Source: a virus
Taxonomy: Duplodnaviria; Heunggongvirae; Uroviricota; Caudoviricetes
Strand: one strand, 5' to 3'
Virus record (IMG/VR): IMGVR_UViG_2778261227_000004
Length of the DNA: 29,708 nt
Both the position numbers and the translations under genes were made by a program. Below the pieces are notes generated by a model that made no database searches, had not been told where the DNA came from, and worked only from the letters and a program-made list of their open reading frames with translations. Every line of letters begins with the position of its first letter. The stretch's first letter is position 1. This document shows, piece by piece, positions 25,593 to 29,708 of this stretch.

Positions 25593-25850
25593 ATGCGTAC
25601 AACCCAACAATTCAGCATTACATTAACTAACGAAATGGCTGACATGGTGCGCGCCCGTGTGGCTTCCGGTGCCTATGCATCAGAAAGCGAGGTCATTCGT
25701 GAAGGACTTCGCGCACTGAATGAGCGCGATAAAGCAATCGAAGCGTGGTTAACGCATTCAGCCGCCCCCTCTCTTGATTCTATCCGCGAAAATCCAAACA
25801 ACGGACGCTCCATTTCACAGGTTCGCGCCGAGATTCGATCCGGGAAGTAA
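25593..25850 (+). CDS. parD: type II antitoxin, ParD-like (ribbon-helix-helix)
   Basis: ATG 25593 preceded by GAGG; MRTTQQFSITLTNEMADMVRARVASGAYASESEVIREGLRALNERDKAIEAWL... typical of ParD/CopG RHH antitoxins; 5 nt upstream of a ParE-like gene. Confidence 0.75.
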   Translation: MRTTQQFSITLTNEMADMVRARVASGAYASESEVIREGLRALNERDKAIEAWLTHSAAPSLDSIRENPNNGRSISQVRAEIRSGK

Positions 25851-25855
25851 TCTGC

Positions 25856-26155
25856 ATGACATATGAAGTCATCATTACTCCTGAGGCCGAACAACAAATA
25901 ATCAACCTGCACAGATATATAACGGAGAAAGCAGGGAACGTCATTGCTGACAATTATGCCAATGCGCTTCTTGATTATCTTGATGGGTTTTCTACATTCC
26001 CGCATCGGGGCAATAAACGCGATGATATTCGCCAGGGGATGCGGGTAACTCATTTCCGCCACAGAACGATTATTGCTTTTGCCGTTGATGGCAGAAAAGT
26101 CTTTATTGTCGGTATCTATCATGGTGGGCAAAGTTATGAAACCGATTTCTTATAA
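25856..26155 (+). CDS. parE: type II toxin, ParE/RelE-family
   Basis: 99 aa; MTYEVIITPEAEQQIINLHRYI...RVTHFRHRTIIAFAVDGRKVFIVGIYHGGQSYE typical of ParE/RelE toxins; small, immediately after the antitoxin. Confidence 0.75.
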   Translation: MTYEVIITPEAEQQIINLHRYITEKAGNVIADNYANALLDYLDGFSTFPHRGNKRDDIRQGMRVTHFRHRTIIAFAVDGRKVFIVGIYHGGQSYETDFL

Positions 26156-27581: not shown

Positions 27582-27938
27582 TTATTCAGTTCTGGATTTC
27601 GTCGCCCTGCGTATCCGCGCTTTCGCGTTACGCTCAATCTGAATTAACTTTTCTATATTTTTCCGTCTTTCCTGTTCCTCCTGGCGCAATAGCCTTACAT
27701 CATCTGCCAGTCTGGTTTCTCTTTTCGCCACAGAGAGCATCCAGTCAAACGGCTCCACAACTGCACCGCAGATTTTACAGCGGACCTGACGCTCTTTTTC
27801 GTCAACCCGGACAGAAGCGTGATGACAATATGGTCTTTCCGATGGCTCATAAAGAAAATTAACCTGATTACGTGGGTCATCCTCTTTTACCGGAAATAAA
27901 ACAATATTACTTAACTCATCTTCTGGTTTGATTTCCAT
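27582..27938 (-). CDS. hypothetical zinc-binding protein (about 118 aa; C-HH...C-x2-C) with basic coiled-coil tail
   Basis: Start placed at ATG 27938 preceded by AAGGAGAGG; ...PYCHHASV...VRCKICGAV... Confidence 0.45.
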   Translation of the reverse strand: MEIKPEDELSNIVLFPVKEDDPRNQVNFLYEPSERPYCHHASVRVDEKERQVRCKICGAVVEPFDWMLSVAKRETRLADDVRLLRQEEQERRKNIEKLIQIERNAKARIRRATKSRTE

Positions 27939-28476
27939 GCTCCTCTCCTTTGATGCGAATGCCAGCGGCGCGTGGCACATTAGCTTCCACGATGCGCACA
28001 GTTGGTTTGTACATCTCAATCGCTGCCAGCCAGTCAGCTCCTGTCATGCGCTTTTCTGCATCGCCATTAGTCCACTGAACCGGTACACCAATAGCCTTCA
28101 TCGCAATTTCTATTTCCCCGGCAATGGCGCTTTTTCCGCAACCAGTAAAACCAGATACAACGACAAGAACTTCGCCCTTGGCCGGTTTTATTTCCCGCGC
28201 TTCCAGCTCTTTAACGCGCTCCTCGAGTTCGTAGACTCTGCATTGTTCTTTATCATCAATCAGATATAACCCAAGACATTCGCTTTCTACCCAGCCACCG
28301 AAATCATGATCGTAACGCTCACATGAAAACTCACCGTCGCTGTCCTTTGTTGGGATGGTGTAGCTATCTAATGGGCCACCATACGTCGGCACATTTCCCA
28401 ATGTCGGATGCTCAATCCACATGAAAAATGCACGTCCGGTTATTGGGCAAATATCTGGTCGCCATTGGTTACTCAC
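27916..28476 (-). CDS. P-loop NTPase-like protein with Walker A in the C-terminal half
   Basis: GTG 28476 preceded by AGGAGG (alternative ATG at 28503 or 28422); ...GEVLVVVSGFTGCGKSAIAGE... matches G-x4-GK[ST]; only about 65 residues follow. Confidence 0.5.
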   Translation of the reverse strand: MSNQWRPDICPITGRAFFMWIEHPTLGNVPTYGGPLDSYTIPTKDSDGEFSCERYDHDFGGWVESECLGLYLIDDKEQCRVYELEERVKELEAREIKPAKGEVLVVVSGFTGCGKSAIAGEIEIAMKAIGVPVQWTNGDAEKRMTGADWLAAIEMYKPTVRIVEANVPRAAGIRIKGEEHGNQTRR

Positions 28477-28768
28477 TGGTTGCCTCCTGGAAAATAACTG
28501 CATGCCCCAGCTTCTCCGCCAGTGCCAGTTCCGCCTTAGCGCCTGCTGACCGCTGCCAGCCTTTCAGCATGTAAATCGCATCCACACAACGAATCATTGC
28601 CATGCAAATATCCATGTAGTGTGGCTGTGTCAGCCCGTCCGGAAGTACTGCCGGGTTTAAGACGGTATGCCCTTCCCGTTTCAGTTCCTCTTCCACCTTG
28701 TCGAACGCCTCACGGTTGAAATTTTTATACCCGGTCATTGGACCAGCGATATAAACCCTCACCCTCAC
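28469..28768 (-). CDS. DUF4406-like (nucleoside 2-deoxyribosyltransferase-like) protein
   Basis: GTG 28768 preceded by AGGAGG, overlapping the upstream stop; MRVRVYIAGPMTGYKNFNREAFDKVEEELKREGHTVLNPA... recalled as the DUF4406 signature. Confidence 0.55.
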   Translation of the reverse strand: MRVRVYIAGPMTGYKNFNREAFDKVEEELKREGHTVLNPAVLPDGLTQPHYMDICMAMIRCVDAIYMLKGWQRSAGAKAELALAEKLGHAVIFQEATSE

Positions 28769-29193
28769 GCCATCACCTCCTGAAAATTACCCTGATAAAA
28801 CGCCAGCACACGATGCATAACCTCACTCTGACGGCACTCACGGCAAATTATGTTCTGGCTCCTGTCGTAGCGGCGTATTTCTCCGTCTGGTAACTTTCGA
28901 ATCAGTGTCAGGTCGGTTCTTTTCTCCGGTGTCTTACGCCATTCGCGATACGTCTGCTCTGACGCAAAAACACCGTATTTACCGGACATGTATAAATCGC
29001 CACAAGCCAGCACATCCACAAGGCAGCGTCGGACCGAATGCCAGCCTGCCCCAGTCGCCCTCTCCAGCTGCGACATCGTCATGCGTTCATTTTTGCGTAC
29101 CAACCCGATAATTCGTGCCTTCAGCTCTTCCCGCTGTTCGGGTGTATATGCTTTTGCCACAAGCCCTCCTGAAAAATCACCTTCACAATTCAT
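28765..29193 (-). CDS. hypothetical 142-aa protein with probable HTH
   Basis: ATG 29193 overlaps the P-like stop (ATGA); ...MTMSQLERATGAGWHSVRRCL... looks HTH-like; not similar to recalled lambda NinB or Ren. Confidence 0.45.
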   Translation of the reverse strand: MNCEGDFSGGLVAKAYTPEQREELKARIIGLVRKNERMTMSQLERATGAGWHSVRRCLVDVLACGDLYMSGKYGVFASEQTYREWRKTPEKRTDLTLIRKLPDGEIRRYDRSQNIICRECRQSEVMHRVLAFYQGNFQEVMA

Positions 29194-29708
29194 ACAAAAC
29201 CAGCCGCTTTCCGGCGCTCATATTCCTGTTTCAGCAACTCAATTGGTGTTGGCCACGACGGGCGTTCTGGTGCTGCCAGTTGCCGCCGTACGGGCGGAAC
29301 GCTGAAGCCATTACCAACATGCTTTGCCCATTTCGTCAGCTGCCGTTCTGCAAGCCGTTTTAACTCCCCTTCGGTCATCTGGCGCTCAATCCCCTTTGAA
29401 CGCATCTCGAGACAAATGTGATACAGCACAGGCTGAGACCACGGATATTTATCGCTCCCGTCGTATCGCCAGGACTCGTTGCGCCAGCGGCGGTACTCCT
29501 CCATCACGGCATCCACCGTCAGACTGAATGGATTGGCCCCGCTTTCCGAAATCAGCGCCACAAACTCAGCCAGGTCCGGAGGCCATGTTTCACCCGCCCG
29601 GCAGCGGTCCATGCACTGGCGGCAGACCTGCCGGATTTGCTGCTCAGTCATCGCACCAATCTGTGCAATCCAGAGCTTCGAAGGTGCGGCCCCGTTCTTC
29701 TGGGTCCA
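29190..29708 (-). CDS. replication protein P-like, C-terminal part (N-terminus probably beyond window end)
   Basis: The frame is open from the window edge through the first ATG at 29651; ...DKYPWSQPVLYHICLEMR...MTEGELKRLAERQL... parallels recalled lambda gpP C-terminal ...ESYPWKSNAHYWLVTNLY...LTDAELRRKAADEL... Confidence 0.5.
   Translation of the reverse strand, partial: WTQKNGAAPSKLWIAQIGAMTEQQIRQVCRQCMDRCRAGETWPPDLAEFVALISESGANPFSLTVDAVMEEYRRWRNESWRYDGSDKYPWSQPVLYHICLEMRSKGIERQMTEGELKRLAERQLTKWAKHVGNGFSVPPVRRQLAAPERPSWPTPIELLKQEYERRKAAGFV

Follow-up and report, generated by a model that had tools for sequence, protein, structure and literature searches.

A kinase-like mini P-loop domain is the C-terminal cassette of a shortened Ead/Ea22-like protein in a lambdoid Escherichia coli prophage

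The IMG/VR virus record IMGVR_UViG_2778261227_000004 (Caudoviricetes) is a DNA stretch of 29,708 nucleotides (nt), referred to here as the window, and represents a lambdoid (Rac-like) Escherichia coli prophage with a minus-strand reading direction. The gene examined here (positions 27916 to 28476, minus strand; 186 codons plus stop, GTG start) encodes a protein, the target, with a Walker A motif in its C-terminal half. The target belongs, in a form shortened at the N terminus, to the mosaic Ead/Ea22-like early accessory proteins of phages, and its C-terminal cassette is a mini P-loop domain of only 72 amino acids (aa) (aa 98 to 169; positions 27970 to 28185, minus strand) that recurs in prophages of three proteobacterial classes. 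We hold this identity and anatomy with high confidence. The fuller explanation that we favor, in which an Ea22-like mosaic protein carries a ligand-binding, oligomeric mini P-loop head, is given a probability of roughly 0.55.

The longest ATG-initiated open reading frame (ORF) in the frame of the target spans positions 27916 to 28503 and encodes 195 aa. In the prophage of E. coli RM8082, the Prokaryotic Genome Annotation Pipeline (PGAP) places the start at GTG 28476, giving a 186-aa protein (WP_047089126.1) that matches the size given in the initial annotation made from the window's sequence. A Shine-Dalgarno sequence, AGGAGG (28483 to 28488, minus strand), lies inside the 3' end of the upstream DUF4406 gene, 6 nt from the GTG, and the two genes overlap by 8 nt in GTGAGTAA, with the DUF4406 stop codon, TAA, at 28469 to 28471; the strong ribosome-binding site and the coupling described in that annotation are thus borne out. 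The Walker A motif, GFTGCGKS, occupies aa 109 to 116 (28129 to 28152, minus strand) and follows a predicted hydrophobic strand in an arrangement conserved among homologues, VLVVVSGFTGCGKS. It had been reported as lying about 120 residues from the N terminus with about 65 residues after it; the motif is real, but its placement needed correction, with 70 residues remaining on its C-terminal side. The possibility that another start codon would give a conventional N-terminal P-loop was also checked and did not hold, since the N-terminal module is a conserved protein module in its own right. The oddity of this protein is that its whole P-loop domain spans only ∼70 residues, not the place of the Walker A motif within the polypeptide.

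The distribution of the domain was determined with HMMER, using residues 100 to 195 of the 195-aa ORF. The search recovered 444 protein clusters (50% identity) at an E value of ≤0.001, 357 of them at ≤1e-10, and the matched stretch was always the same block of ∼73 residues. Among the listed proteins, this block was C-terminal in 145 matches, N-terminal in 15, and in the middle in 9, and it was tied to unrelated sequence through Ala/Pro-rich linkers. Stand-alone homologues, complete proteins of 68 to 87 aa with the Walker A motif at residues 10 to 17, were found in Burkholderia, Burkholderiales, and Mesorhizobium; in a Burkholderia gladioli prophage, a 74-aa stand-alone gene lies between a DNA methylase gene and a Lar-like gene plus integrase, and the Burkholderiales and Mesorhizobium ORFs have maximal lengths of 76 and 87 aa. 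Because such stand-alone proteins exist, the mini P-loop domain is autonomous. Its hosts are prophages of gamma-, beta-, and alphaproteobacteria, a taxonomic spread that is a minimum, as the contig scan was keyed on exact peptide patterns (16 loci). Domain DNA was present in 365 of 5,426 complete E. coli genomes (∼7%), and 81 copies were on plasmids, including phage-plasmids. In beta- and alphaproteobacterial prophages (L003, L092, L093, L097, and L100), a DNA cytosine-methyltransferase-like gene often lies no more than 1 to 2 kb from the stand-alone or fused homologue, a neighbor confirmed by Pfam for L003 only and judged by motif reading for the other four loci. A 3-kb contig of a Collinsella metagenome-assembled genome (L087) carries a 97% identical, enterobacterial-type domain in an actinobacterial bin, which is probably binning contamination.

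Conservation within the domain was assessed for 244 unique domain sequences. Lys18, Ser19, Gly23, Glu24, Glu26, Pro61, and Glu67 (alignment positions) were invariant in all 244, and the three Walker A glycines, Glu44-Lys45, Trp52, and Tyr59 varied in fewer than 2%. Lys18 and Ser19 correspond to Lys115 and Ser116 of the target. The invariant Glu67 corresponds to Glu164 (codon at 27985 to 27987, minus strand), which ends the last predicted strand and closes the segment V-R-I-V-E; Glu164 is a candidate Walker-B-type acidic residue. The ratio of nonsynonymous to synonymous substitution rates (dN/dS) was 0.08 among 47 distinct enterobacterial alleles. Judged from this ratio and from the pattern of invariant positions, purifying selection is strong and is focused on what are, in P-loop proteins, the phosphate- and Mg-binding residues. 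A strict GxxxxGK[ST] pattern arose by chance in 0.9% of shuffles of the target protein, so the motif alone is weak evidence; the full Walker A motif is, however, intact in 236 of the 244 domains and its Lys and Ser are present in every one, and it is therefore not a chance match. The initial description of a real but atypical P-loop stands. The Walker A glycine variants (P0004, P0171, P0244, P0287, P0290, P0299, P0306, and P0358) include the forms GCAKS, GCCKS, GSDKS, and TSSGKS, and P0004 stands for 17 member sequences.

Next, the relationship of the domain to known P-loop proteins was examined. Pfam and NCBIfam gave only sub-threshold P-loop matches for the target, and the curated models thus assign it to no well-characterized family. 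The top weak Pfam match was APS_kinase for all 28 members of the non-redundant alignment (A1), in every case short of the gathering score. The target domain itself scored 16.4 bits against this adenosine 5'-phosphosulfate (APS) kinase model (PF01583), below the gathering cutoff of 21.1, and matched only profile positions 3 to 40 of 152. The family profile was compared by hhalign with individual proteins of E. coli K-12: E. coli CysC was matched with a probability of 96.1% (E = 3.7e-9; columns 6 to 45 against residues 29 to 68; 35% identity), E. coli GntK with 85%, and E. coli AroK with 78% in an alignment that continued through EKRxTGAD. The controls MinD (10%), Adk (1.6%), and BioD (0.8%) scored far lower, as did lambda Ea22 (0.1%). 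The kinase alignment is unreliable past residues ∼45 to 57; relaxed or global hhalign extensions of the CysC alignment beyond residue 45 were of low confidence and placed the last strand inconsistently, and they were rejected. The order of elements predicted from the sequence and the APS-kinase alignment is strand 1, Walker A, helix 1, strand 2, an [N/D]GD-x-EK loop, helix 2, and a strand 3 that ends in the invariant Glu. By these profile comparisons, the domain resembles the N-terminal third of APS/gluconate/shikimate-type P-loop kinases.

Homologues of the target number in the thousands in a large protein database, and the nearest relatives, in phage records and in that database, carry the label "ead/Ea22-like family protein" (GenBank, PGAP). 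Three of them (P0003, P0004, and P0005; 269 to 310 aa), which have an N-terminal PF13935 region, are 87 to 96% identical to the target over 96% of its length. PF13935 was not matched at E ≤ 0.1 on the 195-aa ORF, and the Pfam field is empty for an identical protein (P0001). The earlier conclusion that no family could be assigned is thus correct for the P-loop domain, for which Pfam and NCBIfam hold none, but not for the protein, whose kinship with the PF13935 (Ead_Ea22) proteins reaches 96% identity over 96% of the target. Side by side, the homologues look like beads on a string, and the variable N terminus and the lambda-Ea22-like coiled coil are missing from the target. What remains is, in order, a module A, a short linker of coiled-coil type, the swappable C-terminal cassette, and the tail AGIRIKGE.

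Module A (aa 1 to 77; 28246 to 28476, minus strand; RPDICPITGR...LYLIDD) is a portable domain with no Pfam match. Over residues 4 to 105 the target is 88% identical to proteins of phages encoding Shiga toxin (Stx) 2a, and module A was also found in the PF13935-bearing homologues and in a distant Pseudomonas-like protein (P0244). Published work describes Ea22 proteins as mosaics of a common N-terminal part, a 63-aa segment inserted in Stx phages, and unrelated C-terminal domains (PMC10834534); module A is probably this 63-aa segment, which in the Stx-phage variants of Ea22 separates the coiled coil from the C-terminal domain. A Salmonella protein (P0014) carries module A as a tandem duplicate, and in P0244 (GC-rich, 378 aa) the order is reversed, with module A downstream of the P-loop domain in a distant lineage. 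The heptad-like linker CRVYELEERVKELEAREI (aa 79 to 96; 28189 to 28242, minus strand) forms the conserved 5' boundary of the C-terminal cassette. Its sequence pattern and the published Ea22 architecture suggest that CRVYELEERVKELEAREI forms a coiled coil.

Both ends of the cassette are shared by otherwise different proteins. The junction ...AELEAREIKPAKGEV is kept in 68 unique Ea22-like ORFs whose N termini differ, and these 68 distinct architectures have in common both ...AELEAREIKPAKGEV and ...AAGIRIKGE. The tail, (A)AGIRIKGE, is encoded at 27943 to 27969 (minus strand). Its eight residues AGIRIKGE are all that BLASTP found in common between the target and lambda Ea22, and in DNA alignment ∼27 consecutive nt at 27943 to 27969 match the 3' end of lambda ea22 exactly, with both flanks unrelated. 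The tail DNA is likely a recombination boundary of the cassette, because this identity persists although the C-terminal domains are unrelated. The same DNA contains the ribosome-binding site of the next gene (ATG 27938). In PHROGs, residues 94 to 188 matched two families without function and the final 16 residues matched two others.

The frequency of each combination was determined in a sample of 80 IMG/VR phage loci whose C-terminal domains are 94 to 100% identical. The domain was joined to a lambda-Ea22-like N terminus in 70 of these loci, and module A was present in 2. Two loci (L021 and L032) have the lambda order exo, orf60a, orf63, orf61, ea22, with the P-loop cassette in place of the lambda C-terminal domain. 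The target itself is not in the early left (exo-xis) region; the order around it is P-like, DUF977, DUF4406, target, nin-like genes, and Q.

These results suggested a working explanation of what the protein does. The modules would be exchangeable, with the tail DNA serving as a recombination boundary, and the cassette would derive from the N-terminal third of an APS/gluconate/shikimate-type P-loop kinase. It may bind a phosphate-bearing ligand, most likely an Mg-nucleoside triphosphate (NTP), via Lys115, Ser116, and Glu164, and it would act as a dimer or tetramer that the coiled coil assembles or, in the stand-alone forms, that assembles by itself. Oligomeric action is proposed because the domain, at about half of a P-loop fold, is too small for a complete NTPase or kinase. 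In that state it would serve as the head of an early accessory protein, sensing a ligand or acting as effector, and the protein would modulate the host or the developmental decision of the phage. Ligand binding as an oligomer is given slightly less than even odds when taken separately. In lambda and P27, Ea22 forms tetramers with dimeric C-terminal domains and favors lysogeny by a mechanism described as unknown (Goddard et al. 2024, PMC10834534); these tetrameric and pro-lysogenic properties come from experiments on the Ea22 proteins of lambda, phi24B, and P27 (PMC10834534, PMC7093339).

Several observations weigh against the favored explanation. The kinase lid, the base-binding loop, and strands 4 and 5 are absent from the domain. 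An AlphaFold2 model of the domain had a predicted local distance difference test score (pLDDT) of 88, but DSSP assigned helices to it and no strands or beta-ladder, and the domain lacks a three-layer alpha/beta architecture whose parallel sheet has five or more strands. The Foldseek comparison proposed in the initial annotation was run with this model and returned no significant match in the PDB or BFVD. Sequence and profile searches of the PDB gave only sub-threshold Walker A matches. The DGD-like positions vary across the 244 sequences, and in 8 of the 244 one Walker A glycine is replaced while the remaining domain is intact. The target lacks the coiled-coil region that mediates tetramerization in the characterized Ea22 proteins, and the pro-lysogenic evidence in the literature concerns Ea22 proteins with other C-terminal domains (PMC10834534). 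A single-sequence AlphaFold2 model of the full protein (pLDDT 39) was useless and was discarded.

A more ambitious form of the explanation may also be considered. The domain could be a natural, autonomous "minimal P-loop" of ∼70 residues that binds an NTP or phosphate ligand only as an oligomer. Temperate phages of alpha-, beta-, and gammaproteobacteria would use it, either alone or carried by a coiled-coil Ea22 scaffold, as a head that senses or sequesters nucleotides and so tunes lysogeny or counters host defense. We regard this version as speculative and, on balance, doubtful.

The alternative that fares best treats the P-loop as a relic, conserved because of the demands that folding and interfaces place on so small a protein. 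With half of the P-loop fold missing, catalysis is doubtful, and the domain model has neither a canonical sheet nor a significant structural match; the rare natural variants in which a Walker A glycine is replaced and the remainder kept would fit such a relic, as would the unrelated, non-enzymatic domains that other Ea22 cassettes have at the same position. A purely structural role, however, would not pick out exactly the phosphate- and Mg-binding residues, and it is the Walker A Lys and Ser and the terminal Glu that are most conserved (244 of 244) across three proteobacterial classes, under a dN/dS of 0.08. We therefore consider a relic unlikely.

In another alternative, the domain is a decoy for counter-defense or host takeover. 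A small oligomeric P-loop would then sequester a nucleotide-type signal or, by imitating the N-terminal half of a P-loop kinase or NTPase of the host, poison that enzyme. Such a role would suit a highly portable, modular, strongly selected domain that so closely resembles the N terminus of host CysC (35% identity over 40 aa) and that, in the Burkholderia prophage, sits in an early accessory region beside methyltransferase and Lar-like restriction-alleviation genes. Yet the target matched none of the PADLOC anti-phage defense models at E ≤ 0.01, and no conserved partner or target is evident near the domain loci; a conserved partner gene was looked for beside the stand-alone homologues and none was found. 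A decoy is accordingly judged improbable.

The initial annotation had suggested a functional tie between the P-loop protein and its upstream neighbor, hinting at a nucleotide-metabolizing or DNA-modifying pair. That neighbor (28469 to 28768, minus strand) encodes a 99-aa, nucleoside 2-deoxyribosyltransferase-like protein translationally coupled to the target, and its identification as DUF4406 was upheld by a full-length Pfam match (PF14359, E = 6.4e-37, 126 bits against a cutoff of 22, profile positions 2 to 91 of 91) and by phrog_355 (E = 2e-47). A coupled pair is attractive in view of this translational arrangement, of the recurrence of the DUF4406/P-loop pair in close relatives, and of the likeness of the domain to small-molecule kinases. 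Co-occurrence in other prophages, which had been proposed as the check, went the other way: among the 80 near-identical-domain loci, a DUF4406 homologue was no farther than 6 kb away in just 7 and immediately upstream in just 4. Most domain copies are joined to Ea22 N termini in other contexts, the stand-alone homologues in other classes have different neighbors, and DUF4406 was not near the stand-alone homologue examined. Because of this rarity and of the many Ea22-fused copies elsewhere, the adjacency is best explained as incidental, a product of lambdoid gene shuffling, and a functional pair is very unlikely. One Logan contig encodes a 249-aa protein (P0015) in which DUF4406 is fused in frame to module A, which could be counted in favor of a pair, but its cassette differs and is without the P-loop. 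A single indel or an assembly error would suffice to produce the P0015 fusion, given the 8-nt gene overlap.

Finally, a chance match in a miscalled ORF, which the shuffling rate makes not negligible over the ∼45 genes of the window, is refuted by thousands of homologues, the 444 clusters matched by the domain, a dN/dS of 0.08, an invariant motif, a consistent PGAP call, and a strong ribosome-binding site, and can be dismissed.

The stretch is 99.7% identical to the E. coli RM8082 prophage, whose genes run in the order O-like, P-like, DUF977, DUF4406, target, small genes, HNH, ParDE, DUF968, RusA, and Q. The downstream neighbor of the target (27582 to 27938, minus strand; ATG 27938) encodes a 118-aa protein with zinc-ribbon-like CxxC motifs and overlaps the final 23 nt of the target gene. 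It matched phrog_1621 (E = 3e-56, across residues 28 to 144 of a longer TTG-initiated ORF) and, weakly, Zn_Ribbon_TF in Pfam. Its CxxC pairs are followed by a basic, coiled-coil-like tail, and the same gene lies 3' of the P-loop cassette in 7 of the 80 related loci. Farther away, a ParD/ParE-type toxin-antitoxin pair (25593 to 26155, plus strand; annotation from the RM8082 prophage) lies in the opposite orientation amid the nin-like genes. The P-like helicase loader (29190 to 29651, minus strand) is only 153 aa long and matches no more than the C-terminal portion of the lambda P profile (positions 50 to 161 of 162), and the O-like gene upstream of it carries the RefSeq label "pyocin large subunit," which is probably a misnomer.

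The gene belongs to a family that is annotated but poorly understood, and its cassette is covered by no Pfam or NCBIfam model and falls in PHROG families without function. A description of the mini P-loop domain was not found in the Ea22 and DUF4406 literature searched, and the published study of Ea22 mosaicism does not mention a P-loop-type domain (PMC10834534). Ea22 proteins affect the lysis-lysogeny decision of lambda and Stx phages, and one of their commonest C-terminal cassettes is now seen to be a mini P-loop that is kinase-like and under strong selection. This offers a testable handle on Ea22, through ligand binding and through point mutants of the Lys, Ser, and Glu residues. For annotation, the domain merits a family of its own; current labels are "hypothetical," "Ea22-like," or, from automatic pipelines, various kinases. 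A natural P-loop of 70 residues that is also free-standing would bear on the evolution of the P-loop fold and on the minimum needed for nucleotide binding. If the minimal P-loop version is true, the domain would define a new family and would stand as the living equivalent of the engineered prototypes of ancestral P-loops.

Among known systems, the closest in overall build is the Ea22 family (PF13935, IPR025153; Stx-phage variants V1 to V3), which resembles the target in being mosaic, with an optional inserted segment and a swappable C-terminal domain, and in having the AGIRIKGE tail with ∼27 identical nt at the junction. Unlike that family, the target lacks the PF13935 region, its gene follows the replication genes instead of lying between exo and xis, and its C-terminal domain bears no relation to the lambda Ea22 domain of solved structure (hhalign 0.1%). 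For the cassette, the closest systems are the APS (CysC, PF01583), gluconate, and shikimate kinases, which have the same succession of strand 1, GxxGxGKS, helix 1 (...AG.hE..h), strand 2, and a D/N-G-D loop; they are 150 to 200 residues long, whereas the domain has 72 and is without the lid, strands 4 and 5, and the adenine-binding loop. SIMIBI-class P-loop proteins, such as dethiobiotin synthetase and the GPN-loop GTPase, are also among the closest known systems. Minimal P-loop prototypes bind NTPs and nucleic acids as oligomers. The laboratory-made minimal "phosphate-loop" proteins (PDB 6c2u) and a de novo P-loop ATPase (PDB 9jix) are likewise tiny, with one strand-P-loop-helix element; both were among the weak profile matches (E = 0.3 to 0.4), with a likeness confined to the Walker A motif that is not significant. 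Those proteins are engineered, whereas the mini P-loop domain is natural, widespread, and strongly selected.

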